A stretch of DNA of 64,000 nt, taken from the NCBI GenBank assembly GCA_964361405.1, contig CAYIAA010000001.1:20917-84916 (forward strand), given 5' to 3'. The notes under the pieces are model-generated. The model saw only the letters and a program-made list of their open reading frames with translations. It ran no database searches and was not told the DNA's origin. Shown in pieces: positions 55 to 34,641 of this stretch. The first letter of the stretch is position 1, and every line of letters begins with the position of its first letter. A program made the position numbers and the translations under genes. The stretch is from an uncultured Candidatus Saccharibacteria bacterium. GTDB lineage: Bacteria > Patescibacteriota > Minisyncoccia > Phycocordibacterales > UBA3531.

Positions 55-1065
55 ATGTCATTTCTCAAAGGTAAAAAGGTAATGATTACCGGCGGCGCCG
101 GGTTTTTGGGTACCAACCTCTCATTATATTTGGCTGATCGTGGCGCTAAGCTCATCATAATCGATAACTTTATGCGACGAGGTGCGGAGAAGAATTACGA
201 AGTTCTTAAGGCACGTTTCCCAGATATTATTTTTTACACCGTAGAAATAAGCGATATTCCTTCCATTATTACAAAGGAATTACCAGAGCTTATTTATCAT
301 TTTGCTGCACAAGTTGCTGTCACATCAAGCGTTATTTCTCCGGTTAGCGATTTTCGAATTAATGCAGAAGGTACTTTTCACATTGCCCGCACGGCACATT
401 CTAATGGCATCCCTGTTGTATACGCATCAACAAATAAGGTTTACGGCGACAATGTAAACAAGGTACCTATCAAGGAACATAAGACCCGATATGATTTTGA
501 CGGAGATCTTGCACGCAGGGGAATAGATGAAAATTTTTCCATTGATGCATCAAAGCGGTCACCATACGGAGTCTCAAAATTAGTTGGGGAAATGTATGTA
601 AGGGAATACGGTGGCGTATCAAACCGTTTCTCCTGCATGTACGGACCCCACCAGTACGGCATTGTTGATCAGGGGTGGGTTTCATATTTCGTCGCCCGGA
701 AACTTGCCGATGAGCCGATCACGATTTTCGGCGACGGAAAGCAGATCCGCGATGTTTTGCACGCGGCTGATGTTGTGCGCCTTCTTGAGCTCGAGGGCTA
801 CCATTTGACGAATAATACCGGTGTTGATCTCCGCGGAGAGGTTTTTGCGATCGGCGGAGGGCACCAGAATACCATCTCGCTTCTTGAGCTCTGTAAGGAG
901 CTCGATATTACGCCCTCTTTCGGTCCTTGGAGGCCGTCTGACCAGAAAGTATTTTACGCCGACACCGCAAAAGCAAAACGTCTCCTCGGGTGGGAACCGG
1001 TTGTGGGGATACGGGAAGGTATTGCCGATTTGGTACGATGGGTGAGCTCCGCCAAGGCGGGGTAA
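55..1065 (+). CDS. NAD-dependent epimerase/dehydratase (extended SDR; NDP-sugar epimerase-like)
   Basis: 336 aa; N-terminal Rossmann motif GGAGFLG; catalytic YGVSK (Y-x3-K); first gene of the glycan island. Confidence 0.75.
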   Translation: MSFLKGKKVMITGGAGFLGTNLSLYLADRGAKLIIIDNFMRRGAEKNYEVLKARFPDIIFYTVEISDIPSIITKELPELIYHFAAQVAVTSSVISPVSDFRINAEGTFHIARTAHSNGIPVVYASTNKVYGDNVNKVPIKEHKTRYDFDGDLARRGIDENFSIDASKRSPYGVSKLVGEMYVREYGGVSNRFSCMYGPHQYGIVDQGWVSYFVARKLADEPITIFGDGKQIRDVLHAADVVRLLELEGYHLTNNTGVDLRGEVFAIGGGHQNTISLLELCKELDITPSFGPWRPSDQKVFYADTAKAKRLLGWEPVVGIREGIADLVRWVSSAKAG

Positions 1066-1068
1066 CCT

Positions 1069-2211
1069 ATGAAACTCATCTATATTTTTGATGGGCGGAT
1101 TCCAACAGAACGAGCCCACGGTCTTCATATTGTCAAAATGTGCGAGGCCTTGGGCAGAATTACAGATGTGACACTCGTTGTGCCGGGGAAAGGAAACCGA
1201 GATACAGAAGCGCCCTTTACCTTTTACGGTCTGAAAAAAACATTTTCCGTGCACTATGTTCCGATCCGGGATTTTATCTCGTGGGGACGAATCGGATACT
1301 GGATTAATCAGCTTTCTTTTACGCGAGCGCTTCTTACGGTAGGTATCTTGCCATCGCCCGCCGAGTGCAGAGTTCTGACGAGGGACGGCGTCTCCGGATG
1401 GATTCTCGCGCGGCGCGGGTATCGAGTATTTTACGATATGCACGGTGTACCTCACCGTTTCACTCTGCTGTGGAGGATTGGAATGCGCGTAATGCGCGGT
1501 GTCGTCGTTACCAACCAATGGAAAGTTCGTTTTTGCACTGAAGTGCTCGGTATTTCCCCGGACCGTCTCTTGGTTATGCCGAATGCATTTGATCCGCGCG
1601 CATTCTCCGGGCTTCCGGAGAAAAAGGAATTACGCCGGCAACTTAACCTTTCTTCGGGGCCTATTGCCGCTTACACCGGCCACCTTTACGACTGGAAGGG
1701 AGCGGGAGTACTTGCTCGGGTTGCCAGACTACTCACAGACGTCACTGTGCTTTTTGTCGGCGGAACGGAGCGGGACGTTGCCCGGTTCCGAGAAGAACAT
1801 GGGCACAGCGCCAACATACTCCTTCTTGGTTTTAAGCCGCACGCCCTCGTGCCGCAGTATCTCAAGGCCGCAGATGTTCTTGTTCTTCCCAACTCAAACG
1901 TTTCTCAATCGCGGCGACTTGAGGGTTATTCAAAGTTTGAAACATCACCGATTAAACTTTTTGAATATATGGCAAGCGGAACCCCTATTGTCGCTTCGGA
2001 TCTTCCATCTATCCGAGAAATAGTTGATGAGGAAAGTGCGGTTCTCGTGGCGCCTGACGATCCCGAGGCGCTTGCTCGCGGTATACAGAGGGTGTTAAAT
2101 GAACCTGTACTCGCCGAACGTTTAGGAAAGAAGGCGCAAGAAATAGTGCAGGCATATACATGGGACAATCGCGCCGCCGCAGTGTTTAAGTTTATCAATA
2201 CGCACTCATGA
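1069..2211 (+). CDS. glycosyltransferase family 1 (GT4-type, GT-B fold)
   Basis: 380 aa; C-terminal EYMASGTPIVASDLPSIREIV (E-x7-E donor-binding motif); ATGA start/stop overlap with next gene. Confidence 0.75.
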   Translation: MKLIYIFDGRIPTERAHGLHIVKMCEALGRITDVTLVVPGKGNRDTEAPFTFYGLKKTFSVHYVPIRDFISWGRIGYWINQLSFTRALLTVGILPSPAECRVLTRDGVSGWILARRGYRVFYDMHGVPHRFTLLWRIGMRVMRGVVVTNQWKVRFCTEVLGISPDRLLVMPNAFDPRAFSGLPEKKELRRQLNLSSGPIAAYTGHLYDWKGAGVLARVARLLTDVTVLFVGGTERDVARFREEHGHSANILLLGFKPHALVPQYLKAADVLVLPNSNVSQSRRLEGYSKFETSPIKLFEYMASGTPIVASDLPSIREIVDEESAVLVAPDDPEALARGIQRVLNEPVLAERLGKKAQEIVQAYTWDNRAAAVFKFINTHS

Positions 2212-3296
2212 GAATCGGCATTATTTTACATCCCTACGATGAAGACAAACCGGCCGGGCTCGCCCGGACGATTTTTGAGTGGACGAAAGGAATGCTTTCC
2301 ATCGATAAGAAGAATGAATATATCGTTTTTTTGAAAAATACTCCTCGAAAAAATCCCGATTTGCCGGGGAAAAATTGGCGCGTTGAGTCAACGGGGGGAG
2401 GGATTTTTTGGCTTGATAACCTGCGGAAGAAGACCCTCTGCGATGTGTATGTGTTCAATACTCCCGTGATGCCGCTCTTTTTTAAACCAAAGCGTTCGGT
2501 TGTTCTTGCTCTCGATTTTGCTTACTACTACTTGGCGCCGAAAACTATCCGCGGCCAGTTTTTTAAGTGGTTTACGTATTTTTATCATTTCCTCTCACTC
2601 AAGAGAGCGAATTCAATCGTTGCCATCTCGCGCGCGACGAGGGACGATGTGGTGAAGCTTTTCGGTATTCCAGCTGACCGAATGAGTGTTATTTATCTGG
2701 GGTACAAACACATCTGCGCCGTTTCCGAGACGGCCGTTTCCGGGACCCCTTCGGAAAAGTTCTTTTTTTTCGCGGGCATCATCAAGGAAAGGAAGAATGT
2801 CTATAATACCGTACGGGCTTTCCACCTTTTTTCTCAAAAAGTGAAGGGGTTCAAACTTGCTATTGCCGGAAGCCCGACGGGGAGCTATTTCGAAAAAATA
2901 AAAAAGTATATTGCTGAAAATCACCTGAGCGATTCAGTGATTTTTCTCGGCCACCTAAACGACGGAGAGCTTAGCTATGTGTATAAGAAAGCATACGCAT
3001 TTCTCTTCCCCACGCTCATTGAAGGGTTTGGTATGCCTGTTGCCGAAGCGATGGATTGCGGTGTGCCGGTCATTACATCGAACCAGTCGTCTCTTAAGGA
3101 AGTTGGAGGAGAAGGAAGTTCGCTTCTCGTTGATCCATACGATCCCGCCGATATAGCCGATAAGATGGTGCGTCTTACTGAAGACGAATCCTTGCGGAGA
3201 AGGCTGATAGAAAAAGGTAACTTGCAGTCCAAAAAATTTTCATGGGAGCATTCCGCGAGAGAGCTTCTCGCCATACTTCACGAAGTGGTGAAATAA
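2208..3296 (+). CDS. glycosyltransferase family 1 (GT4-type)
   Basis: 362 aa; EGFGMPVAEAMDCGVPVITS motif; translationally coupled to upstream GT. Confidence 0.75.
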   Translation: MRIGIILHPYDEDKPAGLARTIFEWTKGMLSIDKKNEYIVFLKNTPRKNPDLPGKNWRVESTGGGIFWLDNLRKKTLCDVYVFNTPVMPLFFKPKRSVVLALDFAYYYLAPKTIRGQFFKWFTYFYHFLSLKRANSIVAISRATRDDVVKLFGIPADRMSVIYLGYKHICAVSETAVSGTPSEKFFFFAGIIKERKNVYNTVRAFHLFSQKVKGFKLAIAGSPTGSYFEKIKKYIAENHLSDSVIFLGHLNDGELSYVYKKAYAFLFPTLIEGFGMPVAEAMDCGVPVITSNQSSLKEVGGEGSSLLVDPYDPADIADKMVRLTEDESLRRRLIEKGNLQSKKFSWEHSARELLAILHEVVK

Positions 3297-3298
3297 CC

Positions 3299-4411
3299 AT
3301 GAGAGGATTTTTACAGAAATTATTACTCCTCTCTGTGAGCATGATTGCCATCTTTTTCGTGCTCGAGATTGGGGTACGGATTTTTCTGCGGCAATCCTCA
3401 ACCCTCATTGAGGATGATCCGTATATCGTAAAAAAACATAAAGAGAATCTCGACCTGCGTATTGCCGCAGATACGGAAAAACTCTCTCACATTCGCACCA
3501 ATAGTTATGGGTTCATCGGCGATGAATGGGAGATGAAGAAAGACGCAACGACCTCGCGAATCGCGAATCTTGGCGATTCGTTTACCGCAGGCCACGATGT
3601 CGACTACGACAAAAATTTTAGCGCCATCCTCGCGGGGGAACTCTCCGGAAAAATCGGGGAAAAAGTAGAAAGCTTGAATTTTGGCGTCCCTGGGCAGGGG
3701 AGCGGCCACGCCCTTCTCACCTACCGTCACTATGCTGCCCAATTTATGCCAGACACGGTGATTCTATGGTTTTACATGGGAAATGATTTCGAAGATAACC
3801 TCATTTTTGAAGAAGGCAGTGCGAAGGCTGGCGGTGGCGGCGGACCTCTGGTGAAGAGGATTGCGAGAAAGTCCCAGCTCGCGCACTTTATCGTGAACCG
3901 CCTTGCGAAGAATCCCGCAGTTGCGAATTTTATGCACGGTAGAGTTCTCACCCGAGTTGGCTATGATATAACGGCCGAAACGCACAACGTGCCCCTTGCA
4001 CTTCGGCTTATTTTTACGAATGATAAAGAGAACGACCGCGCCCTTCTAGAAACCAAAAGACTCCTTGATCTTTTGCGGCAAGAAGTTGGGGCGGGTGGTG
4101 GAAAACTTCTCATTGCGGCCATCCCCGCTAACTTTCAAGTAGAAGAGAACTTGAAGGACGATCTTTTCTCTCAATATCCCGGTCTCGACGAGCTTGGGTT
4201 TGATGCGGCGAGGCCAGGCCGCGAACTTAAGGAGATCGCCAGTGAACTTGATCTTCCGTACATAGATCTCACACCGGCATTTAAAGAAGCGTGCCAAGAA
4301 AAATGTACACTCTATGTATGTCCTCACTGCCACCTCTCCGAAGACGGTCATGCGCTTCTAGCCGAGGAGGTAGGGAAGGCGGTCCTTGAGCGCGGGCTCA
4401 TTCCCCGGTAA
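3299..4411 (+). CDS. SGNH/GDSL-family hydrolase with N-terminal membrane anchor
   Basis: Start moved to the internal ATG at 3299 because the track ORF overlaps the upstream gene; hydrophobic N-terminus LLLLSVSMIAIFFVLEIG; NLGDSFTAGHD block fits the GDS(L) catalytic motif. Confidence 0.55.
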   Translation: MRGFLQKLLLLSVSMIAIFFVLEIGVRIFLRQSSTLIEDDPYIVKKHKENLDLRIAADTEKLSHIRTNSYGFIGDEWEMKKDATTSRIANLGDSFTAGHDVDYDKNFSAILAGELSGKIGEKVESLNFGVPGQGSGHALLTYRHYAAQFMPDTVILWFYMGNDFEDNLIFEEGSAKAGGGGGPLVKRIARKSQLAHFIVNRLAKNPAVANFMHGRVLTRVGYDITAETHNVPLALRLIFTNDKENDRALLETKRLLDLLRQEVGAGGGKLLIAAIPANFQVEENLKDDLFSQYPGLDELGFDAARPGRELKEIASELDLPYIDLTPAFKEACQEKCTLYVCPHCHLSEDGHALLAEEVGKAVLERGLIPR

Positions 4412-4423
4412 GGTAAAGCTACC

Positions 4424-4660: not shown

Positions 4661-4672
4661 ATATATTAAGAC

Positions 4673-6436
4673 ATGAAAATTCTCGGTATTTCATGTTTCT
4701 ATCACGACGCCGCGGCGGCGCTTCTCGTTGACGGAGAAATTGTCGCCGCCGCGCAAGAGGAGCGCTTCTCGCGGAAAAAGCACGACGACAGTTTTCCTGC
4801 ACACTCCATCGAGTACTGTCTCTCTTCACAGAAACTTTCTATCGGAGATATTGACTACGTTGTTTTCTACGACAAGCCCGTACTCAAGTTCGAACGTCTT
4901 CTCATGACATTCATCAAAGTGTGGCCACGCGGACTACGGCTTTTTGTAACGGCGATGCGTGTATGGCTTAAGGAAAAACTTTGGGTAGAACACACAATAG
5001 CAAAGAGACTTGAGTATAAGGGAGATATTCTTTTTACCGAGCACCACTATGCGCATGCGGCGAGCGCCTACTATGCTTCGCCGTTTCTCGATGCGACCGT
5101 TGTCACGATGGACGGCGTGGGGGAATGGGATACCGCGACCGTTGGATATGCCAGGGGGAATGAACTCAAATTAACGCACACGATTCACTTTCCCGATTCC
5201 CTCGGTATGCTCTATTCGGCCGTGACGTACTATCTCGGCTTCAAAGTAAATAGCGCCGAGTACAAAGTGATGGGGTTAGCTCCGTACGGGAATCCCAATC
5301 GGTATTATGAGCACTTTAAGAAGTTAATTGACGTGAAGGCAAATGGGAGTTTCCGGCTCGATATGCGCTACTTTGCCTATGAGTATGGGCTCACGATGAC
5401 AAATACCAAGTTTGATGCACTTTTTGGAGGTCAGCCGCGCACCCCGGAATCAGAACTCACGGAGCGACACAAAGATATTGCCGCCTCACTTCAGAAGATA
5501 ACTGAAGAGATAGTGCTAAAAATTGTCACTCATGCAAAGAAATTGCACCCATCCGAAAATCTCTGTATGGCGGGTGGTGTGGCGCTTAATGCCGTCGCCA
5601 ACGGAAAAATTCTCGCTTCGGGAGTGTTCAAAAATATCTATATCCAGCCGGCGGCAGGGGATGCGGGGTGCGCTCTCGGCGCCGCATGCTACGTCTATTT
5701 CGACGTACTCGGGCACAAAAAGGAAGGGAGTGCGATGAAGAGCGCATACCTTGGACCGTCGTTTTCAAACGATGAGATCAAGGATTTTTTAGGTGAGGCA
5801 GGGCGCGAATATCCCGGATTCCGTTATAGTGTTTTTTCTGATAGTGATCTTTCTTCACACGTCGCAAAATTTCTTTCGGAGAATCAGGTCGTTGGTTGGT
5901 TTCAAGGGAGGATGGAATTCGGGCCGCGTGCCTTGGGGAACCGCTCGATTCTCGCCGATCCGAGAAAGAAAGAAAATTGGCAGAGGGTTAATCTCAAAAT
6001 TAAATTTCGCGAGAGTTTTCGTCCATTCGCACCCTCTGTTCTCGCCGAGCGGGCAGGGGAGTATTTCGATTTACATGGCGCGGAGAGTTCTTACATGCTT
6101 TTGGTCGCCCCAGTTCGAATGAAAAGTATTCCGGCGGTTACGCATGTTGATGGCTCGGCGCGGATTCAAACTCTGCGACGCGAGGACAATGAGCGTTTCT
6201 ATGACCTCATCAGCGAGTTTGAGAAACTGACCGGATGCTCGGTTCTTGTGAACACTTCTTTTAACGTCCGCGGCGAGCCGATTGTCTGTACTCCGAAAGA
6301 AGCCCTCCGCGTTTTCGCAAACACCGATATGGATGTGCTTGTTTTGGGGAACTTCCTCATTGTAAAAAGTGAGAATCCAATGTTAAATATAAAAGTGAAT
6401 CAGGAGTTGTATCTCAAAGAATTTCAAATAGACTAA
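4673..6436 (+). CDS. carbamoyltransferase, NodU/CmcH family
   Basis: 587 aa; N-terminus MKILGISCFYHDAAAALLVDGEIVAAAQEERFSRKKHD is typical of the Kae1/HypF-like carbamoyltransferase domain. Confidence 0.8.
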   Translation: MKILGISCFYHDAAAALLVDGEIVAAAQEERFSRKKHDDSFPAHSIEYCLSSQKLSIGDIDYVVFYDKPVLKFERLLMTFIKVWPRGLRLFVTAMRVWLKEKLWVEHTIAKRLEYKGDILFTEHHYAHAASAYYASPFLDATVVTMDGVGEWDTATVGYARGNELKLTHTIHFPDSLGMLYSAVTYYLGFKVNSAEYKVMGLAPYGNPNRYYEHFKKLIDVKANGSFRLDMRYFAYEYGLTMTNTKFDALFGGQPRTPESELTERHKDIAASLQKITEEIVLKIVTHAKKLHPSENLCMAGGVALNAVANGKILASGVFKNIYIQPAAGDAGCALGAACYVYFDVLGHKKEGSAMKSAYLGPSFSNDEIKDFLGEAGREYPGFRYSVFSDSDLSSHVAKFLSENQVVGWFQGRMEFGPRALGNRSILADPRKKENWQRVNLKIKFRESFRPFAPSVLAERAGEYFDLHGAESSYMLLVAPVRMKSIPAVTHVDGSARIQTLRREDNERFYDLISEFEKLTGCSVLVNTSFNVRGEPIVCTPKEALRVFANTDMDVLVLGNFLIVKSENPMLNIKVNQELYLKEFQID

Positions 6437-6440
6437 AACC

Positions 6441-6602: not shown

Positions 6603-6636
6603 TCACCGTACTCTACGGTTGTTATCGTGTGTCCGT

Positions 6637-6656: not shown

Positions 6657-6670
6657 CGGTTAGTTTTAGT

Positions 6671-6694: not shown

Positions 6695-6697
6695 TTT

Positions 6698-6898
6698 ATG
6701 GATAGTTCAATCAAACCTCGAGTCGTTTATACCACAGGAGAAGCACGGAGGATCCTCAAGATAAGCGAGAGCACAGTTAAACGTTTACTTAAGCGCGGTT
6801 TTCTGCGCGCCAACAAGGTTGGTGGACAGTACCGGATTCTTGGACAGGAACTCCTGCGTCTTGTCGTGCCGGAGAGAAAAAAGCAAACCCCACGATGA
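6698..6898 (+). CDS. excisionase-family helix-turn-helix DNA-binding protein
   Basis: 66 aa; TTGEARRILKISESTVKRLLKRGFLRANKVGGQYRI matches the MerR-like excisionase HTH pattern; ATGA overlap with the next gene. Confidence 0.55.
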   Translation: MDSSIKPRVVYTTGEARRILKISESTVKRLLKRGFLRANKVGGQYRILGQELLRLVVPERKKQTPR

Positions 6899-8241
6899 AA
6901 ACTGTCATGATGACTCTTTCCCGCGGATCCCTTATCCGCAACTTTTTTCATACAGGGATTGTTCCTGAACTCCTTCGTCGCGGATTACGTGTCGTAGTCT
7001 TGACTCCGCATTCGGATGACTCGGCTTTTGTACCTTACCGGCATCAAAATCTTATTTTTGAACCACTGATCGAATCGAAAAACTTGCGTTTCAATCAGCT
7101 ATTCATTGAGATTGAAAAAGGAATTATTTTCAATAAGACTGTACGTGCGCGCTACCGCTATCGCGTTGCCGGCAGGATACCGTCGCGTTTCTACTTTGTG
7201 GTGCGGATGTTTCTCTTTGCACCGCTCTCACTCATTCCCAGCATAAAGCGCTTTTTTCGCTGGGTTGATTTTCACGTGAACCCAGAACGTCAACATGATT
7301 ACCTTATTGAGAAATACAAACCGGATCTCATATTTTCAACATCAGCCGGCGGTGATATTTCGGTTATCAAAGGTGCACAGCGCTTTGGCACCAGGTCGGT
7401 TGATATGCCGAAAAGTTGGGACACATTACCAAAATATCTTTTCAATGTGAAAGCCGATTACATGGTCGTCTGGAGCGAGTTTATGAAAGAGCAAGCAATT
7501 GAAGTGCAAGGGTATCGCCCGGAGGAAGTTATCGTGACCGGCGTGCCGCAATTTGATTTTTATAAAGACGAAAAACGATTTATCTCGCGCGAGGAATTCT
7601 GCCGGCAGTTTGGATTTGATCCGGAAAAAAAAATCATTCTCTATGGTTCGACTGGGGGCAACTGCTGTGATGAGATGACATACATACAGCTTCTCCGGCG
7701 GTATATGGCGGACGGCATTTTGAAAGATGCACAGGTTTTAATCCGGCCGCACATTGGCTACCTCGGGGACGTGGATCGTTTTGCCGAGGCTGAACGTTAT
7801 CCAGGTTTTGCGCTCGACCTGAGCGGAAGACAAGGAAGTACGTTCCAAGACAGGTGGGACACGAGCGAGAGCCATGTGAATCATCTCGTCAATTCTTTCA
7901 GACACGCCGCGGTAAGTATCAATATTGCCTCAACGCTTTCTCTTGATTCGCTTGCAGCCGGGGTACCTGTGGTGAATATAAACTTCGACGTTGATCCGAA
8001 CATAAGTTCGCATTTTTCCACCAAGCGCTTGTATCAATCGGATTATATCGAAGCGGTTGTGCGTTCGGGCGGCACGCGGGTTGCCCGAAGTGAAAAGGCA
8101 TTTCGAGAAGCACTCACGGAAATTCTTGATGGTGGTGTGGTCGAGAAAGAGAAAGAATCGGCACTACGCTACCTTGTATTCCGCGCAGACGGTCACTCTG
8201 GGGAGCGGCTCACAGAGGCGCTTGTCGGTCTTTTACCATAA
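6895..8241 (+). CDS. GT-B fold transferase, CDP-glycerol glycerophosphotransferase (TagB/TagF)-like
   Basis: 448 aa; KKIILYGSTGG...VLIRPHIGY...SINIASTLSLDSLAAGVPVV parallels the TagF LYAPTWR / RFH / ITDYSS blocks; paralogous to 17752..19131 (shared MPKSWDT motif). Confidence 0.45.
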   Translation: MKTVMMTLSRGSLIRNFFHTGIVPELLRRGLRVVVLTPHSDDSAFVPYRHQNLIFEPLIESKNLRFNQLFIEIEKGIIFNKTVRARYRYRVAGRIPSRFYFVVRMFLFAPLSLIPSIKRFFRWVDFHVNPERQHDYLIEKYKPDLIFSTSAGGDISVIKGAQRFGTRSVDMPKSWDTLPKYLFNVKADYMVVWSEFMKEQAIEVQGYRPEEVIVTGVPQFDFYKDEKRFISREEFCRQFGFDPEKKIILYGSTGGNCCDEMTYIQLLRRYMADGILKDAQVLIRPHIGYLGDVDRFAEAERYPGFALDLSGRQGSTFQDRWDTSESHVNHLVNSFRHAAVSINIASTLSLDSLAAGVPVVNINFDVDPNISSHFSTKRLYQSDYIEAVVRSGGTRVARSEKAFREALTEILDGGVVEKEKESALRYLVFRADGHSGERLTEALVGLLP

Positions 8242-27764: not shown

Positions 27765-29999
27765 ATGGCAAAAATAATCGTTACACTTGGGCCATCGACC
27801 AATACTGAGAGCGACCTCCGGAAAATACAAAGTAAGGGCGTTAGTTTCGTGCGGGTTAATATGTCCCACTCGACAACTCTTGATCTTGAGCGTTTCATTC
27901 AAATGTCAAAGAAGGTAGGTATCCCTTTCATTGTTGATACCGAAGGGTCTCAAGTGAGAACGGGGGATCTAAAAGATCCTGAAGTTTCTTACGATGAAAA
28001 TGATGAAATTAAGATATATAACCGTCCGATCATCGGTGACCGAGAAATGATCTGTCTCAAGCCATACCACGTGGTAGAGCAACTTGAACCCGGAGATATT
28101 ATTCACGTTGATTTTAATAATTTAATACTGCGGATAACCGATATATACACACTATCCAAAGGTTACTCTATGGCGAGAGTGATAAGTAGTGGGGTTTTAG
28201 GAAGAAATAAAGCAGTTGTTATTGACTTCGGTGCAAAAAGAGAACTTAACCTTTCTCCATTGTCAGAAAAAGATCACGAGTCCATCGCGATCGGTCTCAG
28301 AGAAGGGGTCGGCCATATTGCTGCTTCATTTATGAGGTCAAAGGCATTTGTAGAAGAGGTGCGACGAGCTACAAAAGGTTCAATGAAAATTATTTCTAAG
28401 ATCGAATGCCTCGACGCTCTCGAGAACCTCGATGAAATAATTGAGGCATCAGATTATTTGTTGATTGACCGGGGGGATTTAAGTAAGGAAGTACCTATAG
28501 AAAAAATACCATTTCTTCAGAAAATCATTTTAAAAAAAGCAAAGGATCAAGGAAAAGGTGTATTTGTTGCAACAAACCTTTTGGAGACCATGGTTCGAGA
28601 GAGGAAACCCACACGTGCAGAGGTAAATGACGTTGCAAATACCATCCTCGATGGCGCATATGGTCTTGCACTCGCGGCCGAGACCGCCATCGGCAAATAC
28701 CCAATGGAGAGTATTGCTATGCTCAATAAATTGATTTCTGAGACAGAGGTATTCCTCAATACCAAGAAAAAAACCACAGGAGAGTCTAAAGAGATGGAGT
28801 ATTTGGAATACCTGTCGTCTGCCGCCATTTCTTCAGCTCTTATACCGCCGCACGGGGGAGTACTCGTTGACCGAGTTTTGAAAGAAATTCCTCCAAAGTC
28901 ATATCTCGATTCACTACGGAAGATCACGATTGACGAAAATCAACAAATGGACGTCGAGCAGATCGGCATTGGAACATTTAGTCCGATTGAAGGATTTATG
29001 GACAAAGATAACTTCAGAAGTGTTTTAGATCGGATGCGGCTGTCCAGCGGTGTTATTTGGACTATACCAATTCTTTTGGATATATCTCTTCCGGAAGCGG
29101 GGGCCATATCAATTGGTGACACCGTTATATTAGTGAATGAAAAAGGCGAAACCCTCTCACTGCTACATGTAAGCGATAAATATACATTCGATAAAGAAGA
29201 AATGGCACAGAAACTGTATGGAACTCGTAGTCCCGAACACCCAGGAGTACAAATGATATCCAAAATGAAACCAATATTACTCGGCGGAAAGATAGATTTA
29301 GTGAAGCGGCGAGGGTCGGACCATAAAGAATATGAATTAACACCTCGTCAGGTACGAAAGTTATTTGATGAGCGTGGCTGGAGAAAAGTAGTGGGATTCC
29401 ACACAAGAAATGTGATCCATCGAAGCCATGAATTTATTCAACTGAAGGCAATGGAGGGGGAATATGCCGATGGATTATTCATACATCCAATTATTGGTAA
29501 GAAAAAAAAGGGAGATTTTAAGGCACTGTATATCCTTAAAGCGTATGAGATGATGATGAAAGATTATTATCCCAAGAACAGCGTTGTCTTAAGCGCTTTT
29601 TCAACGTACTCGCGGTACGCAGGACCAAGGGAAGCAATTTTTACGGCACTTTGCAGAAAAAATTTCGGCTGTAGTCATTTTATTGTTGGACGAGATCACA
29701 CTGGGGTGGGTGATTTTTATCATCCAAATGCTTCTCATGATATTTTTGACCAATTTCCAGATTTGGGTATACAGCCAGTTAAATTTGATAAAGTATTTTA
29801 TTCAAACAGCCATAAAAAGCATCTCCACGAAAGAGATGTTCCTAGTCATCCAGAGAGCGATAAATTTCATATCAGTAGCACTGACGCGAGAAAAATGTTT
29901 GAAAAGGGAGAAAGTCCGCCTGAGTGGTCTATGAGACCGGAAATATCGAAAATGATTATCGATTCTTTATGTGCGGGGCATAAGGTATTTGTCGAATAG
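27765..29999 (+). CDS. fusion protein: pyruvate-kinase-like catalytic barrel (N-terminal) plus sulfate adenylyltransferase/ATP sulfurylase (C-terminal)
   Basis: 744 aa. Pyruvate-kinase blocks VRVNMSHS, VDTEGSQVRTG, IISKIEC, DRGDLS, VATNLLETM and DVANTILDGAYGLALAAETAIGKYP are present with all catalytic residues; no PK C-terminal domain. Sat blocks GFHTRNVIHRSHEFI (QTRNxxHRAHE) and IVGRDHTGVG (GRDHAG) follow. Confidence 0.75.
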   Translation: MAKIIVTLGPSTNTESDLRKIQSKGVSFVRVNMSHSTTLDLERFIQMSKKVGIPFIVDTEGSQVRTGDLKDPEVSYDENDEIKIYNRPIIGDREMICLKPYHVVEQLEPGDIIHVDFNNLILRITDIYTLSKGYSMARVISSGVLGRNKAVVIDFGAKRELNLSPLSEKDHESIAIGLREGVGHIAASFMRSKAFVEEVRRATKGSMKIISKIECLDALENLDEIIEASDYLLIDRGDLSKEVPIEKIPFLQKIILKKAKDQGKGVFVATNLLETMVRERKPTRAEVNDVANTILDGAYGLALAAETAIGKYPMESIAMLNKLISETEVFLNTKKKTTGESKEMEYLEYLSSAAISSALIPPHGGVLVDRVLKEIPPKSYLDSLRKITIDENQQMDVEQIGIGTFSPIEGFMDKDNFRSVLDRMRLSSGVIWTIPILLDISLPEAGAISIGDTVILVNEKGETLSLLHVSDKYTFDKEEMAQKLYGTRSPEHPGVQMISKMKPILLGGKIDLVKRRGSDHKEYELTPRQVRKLFDERGWRKVVGFHTRNVIHRSHEFIQLKAMEGEYADGLFIHPIIGKKKKGDFKALYILKAYEMMMKDYYPKNSVVLSAFSTYSRYAGPREAIFTALCRKNFGCSHFIVGRDHTGVGDFYHPNASHDIFDQFPDLGIQPVKFDKVFYSNSHKKHLHERDVPSHPESDKFHISSTDARKMFEKGESPPEWSMRPEISKMIIDSLCAGHKVFVE

Positions 30000-30013: not shown

Positions 30014-30955
30014 ATGGAACTCCTTATTGTTACCTACCACTACGTTGACGACCCGAAGAAATTTAAGGCCGGGATTTATCCCATTTCTCCCGAAGCTTTT
30101 CAGGACCAGATGGAGGGACTTTCTCGAACTCACCAGTTCATTTCCGAGGGGGACTTGCTTGACGCAATTTCTGGAGTGCGACCATTTGCTAAGCCATCAT
30201 GCCTAGTGACTTTCGACGACGGTCTCGCTTCCCAAATGCACTTTGCGGTGCCTATTTTGGAGAAGCAAAAAATCCCTGCAGTTTTTTTTGTTACCACCCA
30301 ACCGTATACAAGCGGTAAGGCCGCTACGGTTCACAAGATCCACTACCTTCTCTCGCAGGTGCCAGCTGAAACCCTCAAAACTGAAGCTGAAGATAGTTAT
30401 AAAAAATTGACCGGTGAAATACTTAATTGGTTGGCAGAGCGCTTGAGAGAGGCGGAGGAGTGGTACATTTACGACGATTTAGTCACTGCTCGTCTCAAGT
30501 TCCTTTTGAACCATTATCTCGACTCCGAGAAGACGGATCATATAGTGGATGACCTTTTTGCTCGCCACTATAGAGATGGAGAAGCGGCATTTGCGAAAGA
30601 ACTCTATTTTTCCCAAAATGATCTCAAGATGATTAAAGACAATCCACTTTTTGCCGTCGGACTTCATACGCACACTCACCTCAACATACAGAAGGCATTA
30701 GAGTCTGCGGTTAAATCGGACATAACTGCAAACTATTCTTATCTCTCTGAACATTTGGGTATGACAATACGCGGCATTTCATACCCTTACGGCATGATTT
30801 CTGAGACTGAATACGAGAAAAAAGTGGTGACTATCGGAAAAGAATTGGGTCTTCTCTATGGCGTCACAACAGTAAAGGGCGTGAATACTGACCTTACAAG
30901 ACCGTTTTTCCTAAAGCGTTTGAATCCGAACGACCTGAAAGAAGAACTCGAGTGA
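30014..30955 (+). CDS. polysaccharide deacetylase (NodB homology, CE4)
   Basis: 313 aa; LVTFDDG motif and the His-rich HTHTH region. Confidence 0.7.
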   Translation: MELLIVTYHYVDDPKKFKAGIYPISPEAFQDQMEGLSRTHQFISEGDLLDAISGVRPFAKPSCLVTFDDGLASQMHFAVPILEKQKIPAVFFVTTQPYTSGKAATVHKIHYLLSQVPAETLKTEAEDSYKKLTGEILNWLAERLREAEEWYIYDDLVTARLKFLLNHYLDSEKTDHIVDDLFARHYRDGEAAFAKELYFSQNDLKMIKDNPLFAVGLHTHTHLNIQKALESAVKSDITANYSYLSEHLGMTIRGISYPYGMISETEYEKKVVTIGKELGLLYGVTTVKGVNTDLTRPFFLKRLNPNDLKEELE

Positions 30956-30973: not shown

Positions 30974-31591
30974 TTAAAGTTTGCCAGAGAGTTTTTGCAA
31001 AAGTGTACTCTCGTCCGCTTGGGAAGAAACAACGAAGGTGCGATCCGCAAGTTGGGAAAAGAGCGGCAAGAATATTTTCTCATTTATTTCCATTGCCACT
31101 CCCCATGACGCTCTCTCCCTGCCGCTCGCGATTCCTTCTCGAGCACCATAACCACGCTCATCTGCGCGTTTTCCGCGGACCTCTTTCGGCGTGGCGAGGA
31201 GAATAAGCATTTCGACGCGGGGGATGAATTCTAGATAGCGTTCAAATATACGGGGTGGAACTGGTCGCTCAAAAATCGAGTAGAAGTTTTGGACATGGCC
31301 TTCGTCGATGATGGCGTTTTTGAGTTTTCTAGCCTTTTCATATTTGGCGGCATGGTGGAGAAAAGTATTCAAGACTTTTGTTCGGAACACCGGCCAGCTT
31401 CGCGACTCGGTCACAATGAGGGAAAGTGTTTTGATTGTGAAGAGCGGGTGTTTTGAGGCAAAGAGGGAAGCGAGAGTAAGAAGCTCACTTTTTCCGGTAA
31501 TCTTCACAATCGGGAAATCCAGACGCTCGGAGAGTATTTTTGCAAGAGATGTTTTCCCTGAAGCGGGAGGGCCGACGAGTTCTATAATCAC
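30974..31591 (-). CDS. P-loop NTPase/kinase-like hypothetical protein (not a recognisable APS kinase)
   Basis: 205 aa; Walker A GPPASGKTSLAK at the N-terminus; lacks the CysC DGDN/FISP motifs. Confidence 0.4.
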   Translation of the reverse strand: MIIELVGPPASGKTSLAKILSERLDFPIVKITGKSELLTLASLFASKHPLFTIKTLSLIVTESRSWPVFRTKVLNTFLHHAAKYEKARKLKNAIIDEGHVQNFYSIFERPVPPRIFERYLEFIPRVEMLILLATPKEVRGKRADERGYGAREGIASGRERASWGVAMEINEKIFLPLFSQLADRTFVVSSQADESTLLQKLSGKL

Positions 31592-32316
31592 GGCTTTGTG
31601 AATGTTACAGCGTAAGATTCTGAAAAAAAAGCACTCGCGGGATTGAGTTGGAAGGACGAAAATATCCGGTAAAGTAATCTATTGAGAGCCGGAATTGAGA
31701 TAACTGGGGTATGAAGAGTAACTGGCCACACCCCCTCTACAGAGAATCCCGCATCTCTTAGAAACCTAGTGAGCACTTTCGGTTTGATTTGACCTCGGTG
31801 GATGGGTGGAATAGTTTTTCTCGCGAGGGTACTCCGTCCATAATGAGACATCTTGGTGATGATGATACCCCGACCACCCGCTTTCATGAGTGAGAACACC
31901 TTCTTCGCGAAATCTTTTTTAGACGGAAGGTACTCGATTGCCCGGGATGAAAAGAAGAAATCGTATCTTTTGTTTGCCGCAAAAGACATAAAGTCCGAAT
32001 GAATATAGTGGATATTTTCGGCATTTCCCAATCCGGTTTTTGCCTGCCTCAACATGACCTCGGAGATGTCGACAAGATCAAATGAAGCGTTTGGAACGAA
32101 CGTGATGAACACTTTTGTCCATGTCCCCGGGCCGGAGCCTAGTTCGAGATAGTGCGAGAACTTTACATCCTTGGCGAGCTGCCGTATAGATTTCTCCGTC
32201 ATAAAATAATCTTGTTCGCGTTCGGCGGTGCTTTTCCACCGCGCCCTTTCATATTCGCCTCCAGCATTTTCCGCGAAGCGGTTGAAGGATTGTTCTATAT
32301 CAGTTTGTTGGAACAT
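31588..32316 (-). CDS. class I SAM-dependent methyltransferase
   Basis: 242 aa; LELGSGPGTWT motif I; MKAGGRGII; start/stop overlap with the downstream P-loop gene. Confidence 0.6.
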   Translation of the reverse strand: MFQQTDIEQSFNRFAENAGGEYERARWKSTAEREQDYFMTEKSIRQLAKDVKFSHYLELGSGPGTWTKVFITFVPNASFDLVDISEVMLRQAKTGLGNAENIHYIHSDFMSFAANKRYDFFFSSRAIEYLPSKKDFAKKVFSLMKAGGRGIIITKMSHYGRSTLARKTIPPIHRGQIKPKVLTRFLRDAGFSVEGVWPVTLHTPVISIPALNRLLYRIFSSFQLNPASAFFSESYAVTFTKP

Positions 32317-32370
32317 GGGAAAAATCTTCTTTATTATTGTAAATAAAGCATTTTCTGTTATAGTAGGTCA

Positions 32371-34641
32371 ATGCGTCCGGAACGGATACTTACGAACGTT
32401 CTCACTGGCGGAATTTTTTTGATTCCCTTTGTTCCGCTCCTTATTGCGAGTACTGATGCTTTTCCATACCTGATTGGGAATCTCTTTTTCCCCTACATCA
32501 CCGGAAAGAATATCGTTTTCCGGGTTCTCGTTGAAATACTCACGGCCGGCTGGCTTATTCTCGTCATCCTTGATAAGCGTTATCTACCAAAAAAGTCACT
32601 CATCGTCTATGCGGTGTCGGCTTTCCTTGTGGTTATGTCACTCGCCACAGCGCTTGGTGTGGATCCTTATCGGAGTTTCTGGTCGAGTTTTGAAAGGATG
32701 GAAGGACTTGTCACTTACATCCACCTCTACCTTTTCTTTATTCTCCTCGGCTCTTTTCTCCAGAGCGAAAAGCTTTGGCGGTGGTTTTTCCACACCTCGA
32801 TCGGGGTTTCCATCGTAATAAGTTTCATCGCTCTTTCACAACTTTTAGGTTATACCCCCATTGTGCAAAGCTCGGAGCGCCTTGAGGCTACATTCGGGAA
32901 CGCTACGTACTTGGCAGTCTACCTTCTCTTCCACATCTTCTTCGCCGCTTATTATCTATTTCAGACAAAGCATCGCGGCAAGTTAACCAAAATTATCTAC
33001 GCTGGAATCATTCTCTTTGAATCCACCATGCTTCTTTTTACCGAAACGAGAGGAGCTATTGTGGGACTCGTGGCGGGTGTTCTCGTTATCGCGGCACTGA
33101 ACGCGTATGCGAACCGCGGACGCGCGCGAAAAATTGCGGTGGGTGTTCTTGTCGGCGCTTTTTTATTGACTGCCCTTTTCGCGACACTCCGTGATACTGA
33201 ACTTGTGCAAAATCAGCGTGTTCTCCGGCGGATGGCAAATATTTCCATCTCCGAAGTTGCCACCTCTCGTTTTACTATCTGGAAAATGGCTTTGAGAGGA
33301 ACGGTAGAGCGGCCTATTCTTGGCTGGGGTCCGGAGAACTTTATGGCCGTATTCTCGAAGTATTACGATCCAAACCTCTATAACCAAGAACCGTGGTTTG
33401 ACCGGGCGCACAATGTATTTCTTGACTGGCTTGTGGGTGGCGGCATAGCGGGCCTCCTAGCCTACCTTTCTCTTTTTGCCGCATCGCTTTATTACCTTAT
33501 CAGTGGACAGCGAGAATCCGCTCCGAATGGAAGTTTCCGGAGGAAAATTTCAGCCCTTCTTTCAAAGTTTCTCGGGGATGAAGATATGATGGGGAGGACA
33601 ATTCTTGTTGGGCTTTTCGTCGCCTATTTCATCCAAAACTTTTTTGTTTTCGATAATATTGGAAGTTATATCCTTTTCTTCTCCGTGCTTGCCTACCTCA
33701 ATTATCATTATGGCGCGGAGTGGAAACTTTTCGATCGTGTGGCAACCGCGTATCAAAAAACAGTTCCCTTACTTGCAGGGATTATAATCATTGTCCCAAT
33801 CGTAGCTTTTGTTTTCTACACAGTGAACGTCAAGGCATTTCTTGCGTCGAGGACGCTTATTGCTGCTATGCAACCGCATGAAGGAAAAGGGGTGCTTTAT
33901 AATCTCGAACTCTTTGAAAAAGTTATTGAGTATGGAACACTCGGGACGCCCGAAGCTCGTGAGCAGTTTCTACAAATTGCGGCGACGATTGCCGGAGTAG
34001 AGGGCATCGGTCCCGAGGTGAAAGAACAATTTATACATACAGCGAAAGCGGAAATGGTAAAACAACTTGAGGAGCGTCCGTACGACAGCCGCTACCCGCT
34101 TTTTCTCGGTTCATTTCTCGCAAGCACGGGGAATGTTGACGAAGCATTAATTTATCTCAATAAAGCTCACGAACTCTCTCCGCGCAAGCAATTGGTATTT
34201 TTTGAGATTGCCTCGATATATGTTCGAAAAGGGAATTACCAAGAAGCGCTTCGATACGCAAAAGAGGCATATGATCTCGCACCAACTTTTCCCGAGGCGC
34301 AGAAATTTTATGCCCTCCTCGCAATTTATACCGGGAATATTTCACTTGCGGATGAAATTATTACGGATCGAAAGCTTTATACCGACCAGCGGTTTATAAA
34401 CGCTTTTCTTTCGCAAGGGAAAGCAGGCCGCGTAGTCGAAGTATGGAAAAGTGTTGTCGCCGAAAATCCGAACAATGCGCAGAATCACATATCGCTTGCT
34501 GCGGCATACCTCGCAAACGGCGAGCGATCGCAAGCCGTGAAAGAACTTGAAGCGGCAATTCTCCTTGAGAGTGCATTTCGAGAACAGGGTGAGTATTTGA
34601 TTGGTGAAATTAAAGCCGGCAGAAATCCTTCGTCTCCATAG
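32371..34641 (+). CDS. O-antigen ligase/polymerase (Wzy_C-like) multi-pass membrane protein with C-terminal TPR repeats
   Basis: 756 aa; more than 10 TM helices; FTETRGAIVGLVAG loop typical of Wzy_C; C-terminal TPR-like repeats (NYQEALRYAKEAYDLAP...). Confidence 0.65.
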   Translation: MRPERILTNVLTGGIFLIPFVPLLIASTDAFPYLIGNLFFPYITGKNIVFRVLVEILTAGWLILVILDKRYLPKKSLIVYAVSAFLVVMSLATALGVDPYRSFWSSFERMEGLVTYIHLYLFFILLGSFLQSEKLWRWFFHTSIGVSIVISFIALSQLLGYTPIVQSSERLEATFGNATYLAVYLLFHIFFAAYYLFQTKHRGKLTKIIYAGIILFESTMLLFTETRGAIVGLVAGVLVIAALNAYANRGRARKIAVGVLVGAFLLTALFATLRDTELVQNQRVLRRMANISISEVATSRFTIWKMALRGTVERPILGWGPENFMAVFSKYYDPNLYNQEPWFDRAHNVFLDWLVGGGIAGLLAYLSLFAASLYYLISGQRESAPNGSFRRKISALLSKFLGDEDMMGRTILVGLFVAYFIQNFFVFDNIGSYILFFSVLAYLNYHYGAEWKLFDRVATAYQKTVPLLAGIIIIVPIVAFVFYTVNVKAFLASRTLIAAMQPHEGKGVLYNLELFEKVIEYGTLGTPEAREQFLQIAATIAGVEGIGPEVKEQFIHTAKAEMVKQLEERPYDSRYPLFLGSFLASTGNVDEALIYLNKAHELSPRKQLVFFEIASIYVRKGNYQEALRYAKEAYDLAPTFPEAQKFYALLAIYTGNISLADEIITDRKLYTDQRFINAFLSQGKAGRVVEVWKSVVAENPNNAQNHISLAAAYLANGERSQAVKELEAAILLESAFREQGEYLIGEIKAGRNPSSP

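Follow-up and report, generated by a model that had tools for sequence, protein, structure and literature searches.

The 64,000-nucleotide stretch of DNA analysed here (the window; contig CAYIAA010000001.1 of an uncultured Candidatus Saccharibacteria bacterium) carries at positions 55-34641 an array of genes for the synthesis and export of a surface glycopolymer, among them a gene in which a cytidylyltransferase is fused to a glycerate 2-kinase. The array comprises 30 genes, counted from the open reading frames (ORFs) and the gene calls of the contig: 27 ORFs of at least 100 amino acids and three small genes of 53-66 amino acids. An earlier reading made from the sequence alone, referred to below as the original prediction, had listed 33. 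Twenty-eight of the genes are on the forward strand and two (30974-32316) on the reverse strand, with intergenic spacing of −31 to +95 bp. The gene calls and the upstream flank were taken from ENA assembly ERZ1292643, contig Hain_H51_01um_R3_18 (150,611 bp), in which window position 1 corresponds approximately to position 21,147; the window together with 10 kb upstream on the same contig is called the 74 kb below. Families were assigned with Pfam and NCBIfam hidden Markov models (HMMs), and scores are quoted against the cutoff of each model (Table 1).

The original prediction of a surface-glycopolymer synthesis and export locus was supported by the HMMs for nearly every family it had listed: the epimerase, the two enzymes it had called GT1 (Glycos_transf_1, CAZy glycosyltransferase family GT4), three proteins of the GT-B glycosyltransferase fold (with marginal TagF/Capsule_synth matches), two AsnB enzymes, the carbamoyltransferase, the deacetylase, five methyltransferases, the sulfotransferase, the CDP (cytidine diphosphate)-alcohol transferase, the MsbA-like exporter and the Wzy/TPR protein. 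The enzyme families present cover methylation, amidation, carbamoylation and sulfation. The array also encodes proteins that had not been mentioned before, namely an SGNH/GDSL protein, the fusion of the nucleotidyltransferase (NT) with glycerate 2-kinase, a D-2-hydroxyacid dehydrogenase, a pyruvate kinase (PK) barrel on the ATP sulfurylase, a P-loop protein, an HTH_17 regulator and the small membrane proteins SxtJ and DUF5989.

The NT domain of the fusion has as its top PDB matches LicC (1jyk, E 4e-13), PntC (6pd1, phosphonate cytidylyltransferase) and IPCT (2xme, inositol-1-phosphate cytidylyltransferase), all of which activate small phospho-alcohols. Its loop AAGVGSR at residues 7-13 is of the G-x-G-x-R type, and T84-x-N86-x-x-S89 and N105-A-D107 have the same spacing as the CTP- and glycerate-contacting residues of CpgD (PMC13228409). 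CpgD from Caulobacter is a COG1213 cytidylyltransferase acting as CDP-glycerate synthase (PMC12275187), and it favours 2-phospho-D-glycerate (PMC12275187, PMC13228409). The proposed user of the CDP-glycerate, CpgA, has a PgsA domain (PMC9393093), and according to the Journal of Biological Chemistry paper no dedicated phosphoglycerate-producing enzyme was identified in Caulobacter. The kinase domain of the fusion is similar over its full length to glycerate 2-kinases (PH0495, 1x3l, E 5e-75, residues 19-427 of 431; TM1585, 2b8n, E 1e-63) and matches PF13660 (DUF4147) with 232 bits and PF05161 (MOFRL) with 100 bits. MOFRL-class glycerate 2-kinases produce 2-phosphoglycerate, and fusions of a kinase with a nucleotidyltransferase, such as HldE and FKP, normally run consecutive steps. 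The fusion of the two domains thus points to a route from glycerate via 2-phosphoglycerate to CDP-glycerate, and the protein appears, on the basis of these family assignments, to activate glyceric acid as CDP-glycerate.

The gene for the CDP-alcohol phosphotransferase is two genes downstream of the fusion. The protein matches phosphatidylinositol-phosphate synthases in the PDB (6h5a, 6wm5; E 3e-7), and the residues D90, D93, G94, A97, R98, G106 and D110 of the DxxDGxxAR...G...D motif are invariant in 10 relatives. We take the PgsA domain of CpgA to be equivalent to this CDP-alcohol phosphotransferase family.

The fusion is rare, with about 10 clusters at 90 % identity among 5.8e9 proteins. An exhaustive HMMER search of 1.84e9 proteins gave three or four fused cluster representatives, compared to 4129 relatives of the kinase (E <= 1e-30), and a pattern search of 185,579 species-representative genomes, within its limits, yielded no fused gene. 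The 41 loci which that search returned contained distant relatives of the NT only, without the gene module described here, except for a Phycisphaera locus (L032) with matches to the aminotransferase, the NT and the kinase. The core of the module is, in order, a first TagB/TagF-like GT-B transferase (TagF1), AsnB, an AspAT-like aminotransferase, NT and glycerate 2-kinase (fused in the window), a methyltransferase (MT1), the CDP-alcohol phosphotransferase, a second TagF-like GT-B protein (TagF2), an MsbA-type ABC exporter and a KpsC-like protein. With the NT and the kinase either fused or adjacent, this module recurs in loci L007 (Parcubacteria metagenome-assembled genome (MAG) GCA_016204045.1), L009/L010, L011, L012, L013 (GCA_016180525.1), L061, L063 and L064, and it spans at least 10 lineages including one archaeon (DPANN locus L014). 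MT1 is the best conserved module protein, and the aminotransferase was present wherever the upstream flank of a module locus was long enough. For AsnB, the CDP-alcohol phosphotransferase and the ABC exporter, similar identities were found in some further loci too. The KpsC-like gene follows the exporter gene directly in L007 and in the locus of another relative (P0259), and a few genes later in L009, while in L009/L010 a 2-hydroxyacid dehydrogenase gene is placed between those of the aminotransferase and the fusion. All loci with an NT of at least 40 % identity carry the kinase, compared to 26 loci with an NT of at most 37 % identity (at least 9 kb of sequence) in which there were no other module genes; the association between this NT and the module is specific.

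On L014, a Nanoarchaeota-labelled contig from the same groundwater well, genes for the kinase, AsnB, aminotransferase, 2-hydroxyacid dehydrogenase, NT and CDP-alcohol phosphotransferase were found, the first five proteins being 31-52 % and the phosphotransferase 23 % identical to those of the window. Judged from these sequences, the gene set suggests an inter-domain transfer of the module. The order in the P0259 locus is GT4 array, HTH_17, epimerase and TagF1, followed further on by NT, two methyltransferases, TagF2, deacetylase, ABC exporter and Capsule_synth protein. An inositol-1-phosphate synthase and a HAD protein stand after TagF1, in place of AsnB, the aminotransferase and the kinase. 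This pattern would fit a swappable CDP-head-group cassette feeding the TagF-like transferases. No description of comparable glycan loci of the candidate phyla radiation (CPR) was found in the searchable literature.

Downstream of position 34641, 615 bp separate the array from SecA, an NYN-domain gene, tRNA-Pro and housekeeping genes, and the 3' limit of the array looks real. The 5' limit only reflects where the window starts: the 10 kb upstream contain four GT4 genes, UDP-glucose dehydrogenase, a third AsnB and two epimerases, and the array runs at least 10 kb further in this direction. In positions 1-20000 neither the terminator-like sites (29, compared to 24.8 ± 6.3 in shuffled sequences) nor the promoter-like sites (19, compared to 21.8 ± 4.7) were in excess, and the scans thus give no operon boundaries. 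From the gene layout and these first 20 kb, the locus is not split into unrelated operons on opposite strands with strong terminators. The original prediction had also called the locus an island; in the sense of an accessory region, this was not borne out. Coding GC is 0.474 inside the locus and 0.492 outside, and GC at third codon positions (GC3) is 0.498 and 0.499, respectively; the few outliers are the PK-ATP sulfurylase (GC3 0.379) and the methyltransferases MT24 (overall GC 0.396) and MT3 (overall GC 0.423). The related locus L058 (about 80 % amino-acid identity, proteins mostly 77-94 %) keeps the gene order from GT4a up to the end of its contig at MT2, and the scaffold recurs in distant Parcubacteria. 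As the composition matches the window and L058 is collinear, the array is on this sequence evidence native and not a foreign island, the sub-cassettes varying and the locus not. The placement of the organism in the CPR, which the original prediction had set as the condition for a candidate host-attachment structure, agrees with the named homologues (MAGs of Parcubacteria, Pacebacteria or Patescibacteria), the 0.1-µm groundwater source, which the contig name places at a Hainich site, and the CPR-typical flanking genes.

Table 1 Genes of the array at positions 55-34641 of the window. Identity (%) refers to the corresponding proteins of the module loci, with the window proteins as reference and the ranges pooled over two locus comparisons. 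TM, transmembrane segment; SAM, S-adenosylmethionine
Gene product	Position	Strand	Family evidence	Identity in module loci
NDP-sugar epimerase/dehydratase (SDR)	55..1065	+	PF16363 + PF01370, E 1e-36; below every NCBIfam equivalog cutoff	
GT4 glycosyltransferase a (GT4a)	1069..2211	+	PF00534 90.8 bits; EPS/teichuronic-type GT4 models below cutoffs	
GT4 glycosyltransferase b	2208..3296	+	PF00534 120.6 bits	
SGNH/GDSL esterase or acyltransferase	3299..4411	+	PF13472 40.3 bits; weak ALGX; N-terminal anchor, hydrophobic residues 3-31	
SxtJ-like small membrane protein, 66 aa	4460..4660	+	PF19588 SxtJ in L058 orthologue; 1 TM	
O-carbamoyltransferase (NodU/CmcH type)	4673..6436	+	PF02543 318.8 bits, PF16861 245.4 bits; NodU model 171 bits, under cutoff	
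DUF5989 small membrane protein, 53 aa	6441..6602	+	PF19451; 1 TM	
HTH_17/excisionase-type DNA-binding protein, 66 aa	6698..6898	+	PF12728; TIGR01764 34.5 bits (cutoff 28.8)	
TagB/TagF-like GT-B transferase 1 (TagF1)	6895..8241	+	PF04464 22.4 bits (cutoff 22.1); BFO_1060 E 6e-14	45-48
AsnB-type glutamine amidotransferase 1	8246..10171	+	PF00733 291.6 bits, GATase_7; TIGR01536 460.7 bits (cutoff 267.1); starts MC	48-57
AspAT-like class I aminotransferase	10181..11395	+	PF00155 165 bits; top PDB match aspartate aminotransferase 1o4s, E 8e-54	57-60
LicC/CpgD-type (COG1213) cytidylyltransferase (1-~240)::MOFRL glycerate 2-kinase (~250-694)	11392..13476	+	PF12804 + PF13660 + PF05161	
SAM methyltransferase 1 (MT1)	13473..14360	+	PF08241 90.7 bits; PDB matches only to SAM-binding core	66-68 (L007-L013, L061, L064)
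CDP-alcohol phosphotransferase, integral membrane, multi-TM	14371..15186	+	PF01066 33 bits (cutoff 22)	38-46
SAM methyltransferase 2 (MT2)	15194..16003	+	PF13649, PF08241; 49 % identical orthologues in L012, L061	
AsnB-type glutamine amidotransferase 2	16005..17747	+	PF00733 176.4 bits; TIGR01536 396.1 bits, over cutoff; starts MC	
TagB/TagF-like GT-B transferase 2 (TagF2)	17752..19131	+	PF04464 30.1 bits; BFO_1060 E 1e-11	30-50 (best match per locus); 38-50 in L007, L009, L011
Methyltransf_24 (TylF-like) methyltransferase (MT24)	19138..19776	+	PF13578 27.6 bits	
MsbA/HepA/PglK-type ABC exporter, membrane and nucleotide-binding domains fused	19760..21547	+	PF00664 + PF00005; HepA 323, MsbA 291 bits, both under cutoffs	43-47
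KpsC/KpsS-like (Capsule_synth) GT-B protein	21550..23082	+	PF05159 27.6 bits (cutoff 20)	
NeuC, hydrolysing UDP-GlcNAc 2-epimerase	23118..24266	+	TIGR03568 378.4 bits (cutoff 235.9)	
NeuA/PseF-like CMP-ulosonic acid synthetase	24276..24992	+	PF02348 87.5 bits; PseF model 169.1 bits (cutoff 205.7)	
D-2-hydroxyacid dehydrogenase	24962..25960 (true start probably ATG at 24983)	+	PF02826 164.9 bits; PGDH and glyoxylate reductase models under cutoffs	
PAPS-type sulfotransferase, cytoplasmic	25965..26888	+	PF00685 (Sulfotransfer_1) 74.2 bits, PF13469 69.6 bits; no TM	
SAM methyltransferase 3 (MT3)	26894..27751	+	PF13489 32.3 bits	
Pyruvate-kinase barrel::PUA_2::ATP sulfurylase fusion	27765..29999	+	PF00224 229.3 bits; PF14306; PF01747 260.3 bits	
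Polysaccharide deacetylase (CE4)	30014..30955	+	PF01522 61.9 bits; N-terminus PgaB/IcaB-like; no signal/TM segment	
P-loop protein	30974..31591	-	AAA_18, E 4e-7	
SAM methyltransferase 4 (MT4)	31588..32316	-	PF13649 46.3 bits	
Wzy_C (O-antigen ligase/O-oligosaccharyltransferase family) membrane protein + C-terminal TPR	32371..34641	+	PF04932 71.2 bits (cutoff 31.7), TPR families; ~11 TM	

Some of the genes in Table 1 merit further comment. The aminotransferase of the original prediction belongs to the class I/II family and is AspAT-like, not a sugar aminotransferase. All three AsnB copies, including the upstream one, retain the catalytic Cys2. MT1 was considered as a phospho-base N-methyltransferase and this was not adopted, the PDB matches to phosphoethanolamine methyltransferase spanning only the SAM-binding core. 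Copies of the HTH_17 gene were found inside the glycan loci L009 (12348-12596) and L010 (553-804), with 61-64 % identity, and in the P0259 locus; from this recurrence the protein is likely to be a dedicated regulator of the locus.

Outside the array, the NYN-domain gene directly after SecA (37781-38269) has a GC of 0.352 and a GC3 of 0.319, its neighbours having about 0.49-0.52. An 898-amino-acid predicted surface protein with SdrD_B, CarboxypepD_reg, SpaA-like and DUF4215 domains is encoded 5 kb downstream of the array (39850-42546) and could, by its domains, be an adhesin or a glycosylation target. The 1.1 kb at 48700-49810, between a pyridine-nucleotide oxidoreductase gene and GatB, have the highest GC of the window (0.558), with overlapping ORFs on both strands and no Pfam family; an RNA gene was considered for it and dropped, there being no Rfam match. 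The transketolase (53356-56328) is split into N- and C-terminal genes about 1 kb apart, and the ORF between them (54531-55205) had no Pfam match.

The structure comparisons did not single out a donor for the TagF-like proteins. The AlphaFold 2 model of TagF1 (predicted local distance difference test score, pLDDT, 93.9), compared by Foldseek, gave only generic GT-B folds (MshA, UDP-GlcNAc 2-epimerases, BshA and MurG; TM-score 0.5-0.57), and a profile of the TagF1 family was uninformative, no TagF being found with it among the PDB sequences. All three GT-B proteins match weakly to the BFO_1060 family (52 bits compared to a cutoff of 200), BFO_1060 being a transferase for pseudaminic/legionaminic acid (Pse/Leg) from Tannerella which is itself TagB-like (PMC5420450). 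By these matches, the GT-B proteins are in a broad group using cytidine-nucleotide donors, which could be CDP-linked compounds or CMP-ulosonic acids. TagF1 has about 150 homologue clusters, and those with a named taxon are all from the CPR. Some relatives are fusions: of a TagF1-like protein with a CDP-OH_P_transf domain (P0258), of a P-loop domain with a TagF1-like protein (P0268), and of TagF1-like with TylF/MT24 methyltransferase domains (P0333). Together with the exchange of the cassette in the P0259 locus, these fusions link the GT-B proteins to the head-group cassette, and it would fit that the scaffold polymerises or attaches whichever CDP-activated phospho-unit the cassette supplies. 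The P-loop protein of the window is 29 % identical (E 3e-14) to the N-terminal domain of P0268; its single-sequence AlphaFold model (pLDDT 37.6) was unusable. In the KpsC-like protein the PF05159 match covers 59 residues, and the sole PDB sequence matches are KpsC (8fux, 6mgc; E 4e-4) at residues 360-428, in the C-terminal nucleotide-binding half.

The original prediction of a sulfotransferase with sulfate activation holds in part. ATP sulfurylase and sulfotransferase are encoded in the locus, but no homologues of APS (adenosine phosphosulfate) kinase or CysQ were found in the 74 kb. In related loci APS kinase adjoins or is fused to the PK-ATP sulfurylase. The P-loop protein was examined as the missing APS kinase and rejected, since it had no similarity to two APS kinases from related loci and its PDB matches were limited to the Walker-A motif. 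Similarly, of the NeuC/NeuA-like enzymes proposed earlier, NeuC exceeds its equivalog cutoff and the NeuA-like enzyme is recognizable, but the route is without NeuB, of which no homologue was found in the 74 kb. The NeuC, NeuA-like and 2-hydroxyacid dehydrogenase block (23118-25960) is 58-72 % identical in L012 and L061 (the dehydrogenase 58 %). In L012, NeuB precedes this block, and the 35-bp gap before NeuC in the window has no NeuB remnant. The missing APS kinase, CysQ and NeuB may be encoded elsewhere in the genome. Judged from the visible DNA, sulfation and nonulosonic-acid capping are unproven.

The PK barrel of the ATP sulfurylase fusion lacks the C-terminal (regulatory) domain of pyruvate kinase, and the catalytic motifs of both halves are intact. 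More than 120 clusters of this fusion were found, with 59-68 % identity, in Patescibacteria/CPR, DPANN archaea and Anaerolineae, and about one fifth of them add an APS kinase as third domain. No paper on it was found in the literature. One possibility is that the PK half regenerates ATP from phosphoenolpyruvate (PEP) for the unfavourable activation of sulfate. One locus found via a PK-ATP sulfurylase homologue (L056, 2123-12817) has a gene set resembling the Campylobacter O-methyl phosphoramidate pathway: a 996-amino-acid CTP_transf_like+PPDK_N+PEP-utilizers protein, a Peptidase_C26 amidohydrolase, a COG1213-type NT, PK-ATP sulfurylase, an APS-kinase-family gene, a methyltransferase, a sulfotransferase, an Inositol_P phosphatase and a CDP-alcohol phosphotransferase.

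Taken together, we consider it rather probable that the array is a native, ABC-dependent envelope-glycopolymer locus of the Parcubacteria type within the CPR, the product being a teichoic-acid-like polymer with phospho-glycerate or glyceramide units derived from CDP-glycerate and with variable decorations. The original prediction of a teichoic-acid-like glycan would thereby stand with regard to the CDP-head-group cassette flanked by TagB/TagF-like GT-B proteins and the ABC exporter, though with glycerate as the inferred unit instead of glycerol or ribitol. In the proposed pathway, the aminotransferase and the 2-hydroxyacid dehydrogenase would provide D-glycerate, e.g. from serine via hydroxypyruvate. 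The kinase domain would form 2-phosphoglycerate, which the fused LicC/CpgD-type domain would convert with CTP to CDP-glycerate. The AsnB enzymes may turn the carboxylate into an amide, and MT1 and/or MT2 may methylate it; either or both modifications may occur. The product of amidation would be D-glyceramide 2-phosphate, which according to PMC6222762 (citing Ovchinnikova 2012) is a unit of the Providencia alcalifaciens O22 O-antigen; no paper on the genetics of glyceramide 2-phosphate was found in the literature.

The CDP-alcohol phosphotransferase, and probably the TagB/TagF-like GT-B proteins, would then move phospho-glycerate or phospho-glyceramide to a membrane acceptor or the growing chain. 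As no WecA/WbaP-type primer gene was seen in the 74 kb, the role of membrane primer could fall only to the CDP-alcohol phosphotransferase. The GT4 enzymes would add sugars. Among these would be uronic acids, formed by the UDP-glucose dehydrogenase encoded upstream and perhaps amidated by the third AsnB. Carbamoyl, methyl, O-acyl, sulfate and possibly nonulosonic-acid groups would be variable add-ons. Since the enzymes for carbamoylation, sulfation, de-N-acetylation and methylation have no membrane or signal segments, these reactions are expected to be cytoplasmic. We anticipate that the polymer is assembled and decorated in the cytoplasm on a membrane acceptor and exported afterwards by the MsbA/PglK-type transporter, and that two proteins work on the outer side of the membrane, the membrane-anchored SGNH protein and the Wzy_C-TPR protein, the latter ligating the product to its final carrier.

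Several observations weigh against this pathway. All enzyme substrates in the locus are deduced from sequence. The kinase domain misses the NCBIfam equivalog cutoffs for glycerate 2-kinase (216 and 210 bits compared to 550 and 670), so glycerate is an inferred substrate for a member of the family that is not an equivalog. A dedicated kinase is also puzzling, 2-phosphoglycerate being a glycolytic intermediate, but it may instead act on already modified glycerate, and modification before phosphorylation would explain a dedicated kinase despite the glycolytic supply. In the phosphotransferase signature D(x)2DG(x)2AR(x)7-8G(x)3D(x)3D the last Asp is at +5 and not +4 in the bacterial subfamily, and it is absent in the DPANN, L056 and L057 copies. 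The likeness to CpgD and CpgA is by group and description, not by direct sequence comparison. The TagF assignment is marginal, with PF04464 scores of 22.4 and 30.1 bits over partial stretches against the 22.1-bit cutoff, and neither TagF nor KpsC was among the top 50 Foldseek matches of the TagF1 model. From the weak match to a nonulosonic-acid transferase family, the GT-B donor could be a CMP-sugar. The lack of APS kinase, CysQ and NeuB in the 74 kb also belongs here, and the Wzy_C-TPR protein is, as far as the sequences indicate, tied to the locus by adjacency only, no orthologue having been seen in the shorter related loci.

It is possible that the core instead remodels a membrane lipid. 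CDP-glycerate would then be used on a lipid, perhaps scavenged, giving an anionic lipid or glycolipid with a phosphoglycerate head, the GT-B proteins would glycosylate the head group as PimA does after phosphatidylinositol synthase, and the GT4 and decoration genes would serve a separate glycan. The CpgD/CpgA precedent, leading to ceramide diphosphoglycerate, is itself a lipid pathway (PMC9393093, PMC12275187). CDP-alcohol phosphotransferases usually use lipids or small solutes, the best PDB matches in the present case being phosphatidylinositol-phosphate synthases, and among the best folds for TagF1 are MshA and BshA, both glycosylating small hydroxy compounds. A gene for a polyprenyl-phosphate primer is not visible in the 74 kb, either. 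However, the module always occurs amid TagF-like GT-B proteins, the MsbA-type exporter, the KpsC-like gene and GT4 arrays, and a lipid anchor is compatible with a polymer: a lipid-primed polymer would suit both readings. We regard lipid remodelling as unlikely. General protein O-glycosylation, in which a PglK/MsbA-type protein flips an oligosaccharide, BFO_1060-like GT-B proteins cap it with nonulosonic acid and a PglL/PilO-type Wzy_C-TPR protein transfers it to S-layer, pilin or adhesin, seems improbable to us. The Wzy_C match has 71 bits, and the Wzy_C family also includes O-oligosaccharyltransferases. The exporter scores 225 bits with the PglK model, the locus has NeuC and NeuA-like genes, a large SdrD_B-type surface protein is encoded nearby, and the three GT-B proteins match the Tannerella Pse/Leg transferase model (PMC5420450), although far under its cutoff. 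NeuB, however, is missing from the visible DNA, L007, L009 and L011 have the GT-B proteins with no NeuBCA in the flanks seen, an orthologue of the Wzy_C-TPR protein was not seen in related loci, and the core of kinase-cytidylyltransferase and CDP-alcohol phosphotransferase would be left unexplained.

Public records call homologues of the TagF-like proteins "CDP-glycerol glycerophosphotransferase family protein", and since PF04464 and PF05159 exceed their Pfam cutoffs and the route is ABC-dependent, a classical wall teichoic acid of poly-glycerol or poly-ribitol phosphate, or a group 2 Kps-type capsule, might be expected. This is very improbable: TagD/TarD and TarI/J were not found among the scanned genes of the window and the 10 kb upstream, nor TagO, TagA, TagGH, LCP, KpsM/T/E/D or KdsA/B among those of the window. 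The sole cytidylyltransferases are the glycerate-kinase fusion and the NeuA-like enzyme, the sequence likeness to TagF and Kps proteins is marginal, and the TagF1 fold is not specific. That the glycerate kinase, aminotransferase, 2-hydroxyacid dehydrogenase, AsnB and PK domains are central-metabolism genes merely lying among glycan genes is hardly credible either. Each of them comes from a housekeeping family, and mixed operons do occur in the compact CPR genomes, but the kinase is fused to or directly beside the cytidylyltransferase in every related locus, the neighbours are the same in at least 10 lineages including an archaeon, three AsnB paralogues occur in one locus, and the PK domain, which is missing its regulatory part, is joined to an ATP sulfurylase in more than 120 clusters.

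The envelope-polymer pathway would have consequences beyond this locus. CPR bacteria and DPANN archaea, which live attached to other cells, are difficult to study, and almost nothing is known of their surface chemistry; the locus is a conserved, testable candidate for the genes of a major envelope polymer. The chemistry of CDP-glycerate, first reported in 2025 and known to date from no product but a Caulobacter sphingolipid, would be extended to another kind of product and to two domains of life. For the dedicated enzyme producing phosphoglycerate, left open in the Caulobacter work, the fused kinase is a candidate, and the whole fusion is one soluble protein. Other CPR glycan loci, too, might be read in terms of a swappable head-group cassette. 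We offer only tentatively, as doubtful in its full breadth, the generalisation that CPR bacteria, and by gene transfer some DPANN archaea, export a polymer in which glyceric acid, or its amide or methyl derivative, takes the place of glycerol or ribitol as the phosphodiester-linked unit. The fused kinase-cytidylyltransferase would form this unit from free D-glycerate via CDP-glycerate, the CDP-alcohol phosphotransferase and the TagB/TagF-like GT-B proteins would insert it, and the cassette would be swappable, with glycerate here and inositol phosphate in a relative. Such a polymer would be a counterpart of teichoic acid built on glycerate. Should the chemistry prove otherwise, the locus would still be a polysaccharide gene cluster, large but ordinary. 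What appears to be new, judged from the genes, is an ABC-dependent envelope polymer locus with a CpgD/CpgA-like phosphoglycerate core and its own fused kinase, shared by CPR and DPANN.

Among known systems, the ceramide diphosphoglycerate pathway of Caulobacter crescentus likewise combines a COG1213/LicC-type cytidylyltransferase (CpgD) with a PgsA-type transferase (CpgA). In contrast to Caulobacter, the cytidylyltransferase here is fused or adjacent to a dedicated glycerate 2-kinase, the locus has no ceramide or sphingolipid genes, and the pair is set in a glycopolymer scaffold (AsnB, methyltransferase, GT-B, ABC exporter, GT4) of CPR and DPANN. Wall teichoic acid synthesis (TagD/TagB/TagF/TagGH) shares with the locus a CDP-activated non-sugar phosphate unit, GT-B proteins with matches to the TagB/TagF family, cytoplasmic assembly and ABC export, but here the likeness to TagF is marginal, the unit is probably glycerate or glyceramide, export would rely on a fused half-transporter of the MsbA type, and TagD, TagO, TagA, TagGH and an LCP ligase are lacking. 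In the Lic phosphocholine pathway (LicA, LicC, LicD) a kinase, a COG1213 cytidylyltransferase and the transfer of a phospho-head-group to an envelope glycan follow each other in the same manner, with the differences that the present kinase is of the MOFRL type, the transferase is a CDP-alcohol phosphotransferase and not LicD, and the head group is another. The IPCT/DIPPS system of hyperthermophiles (CDP-inositol) also uses a COG1213 cytidylyltransferase and a CDP-alcohol phosphotransferase on a non-lipid phospho-alcohol, and the P0259 locus has inositol-1-phosphate synthase beside the NT; the DIPPS product is, however, a soluble osmolyte, and the NT of that system is fused to the transferase and not to a kinase. 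The group 2 (Kps) capsule loci with their KpsS/KpsC linker are similar in having a Capsule_synth protein by the ABC exporter and a CMP-ulosonic acid synthetase, and in needing no polyprenyl primer, but the likeness to KpsC is limited to about 70 residues (E 4e-4), and KpsMTED and Kdo synthesis genes are absent here. Finally, the substituent of the Providencia alcalifaciens O22 O-antigen is known chemically, whereas the present locus is known from genes alone; the 2-phosphorylated, amidated glycerate given for that antigen in PMC6222762 is the unit that a kinase, a cytidylyltransferase and AsnB together would be suited to make.

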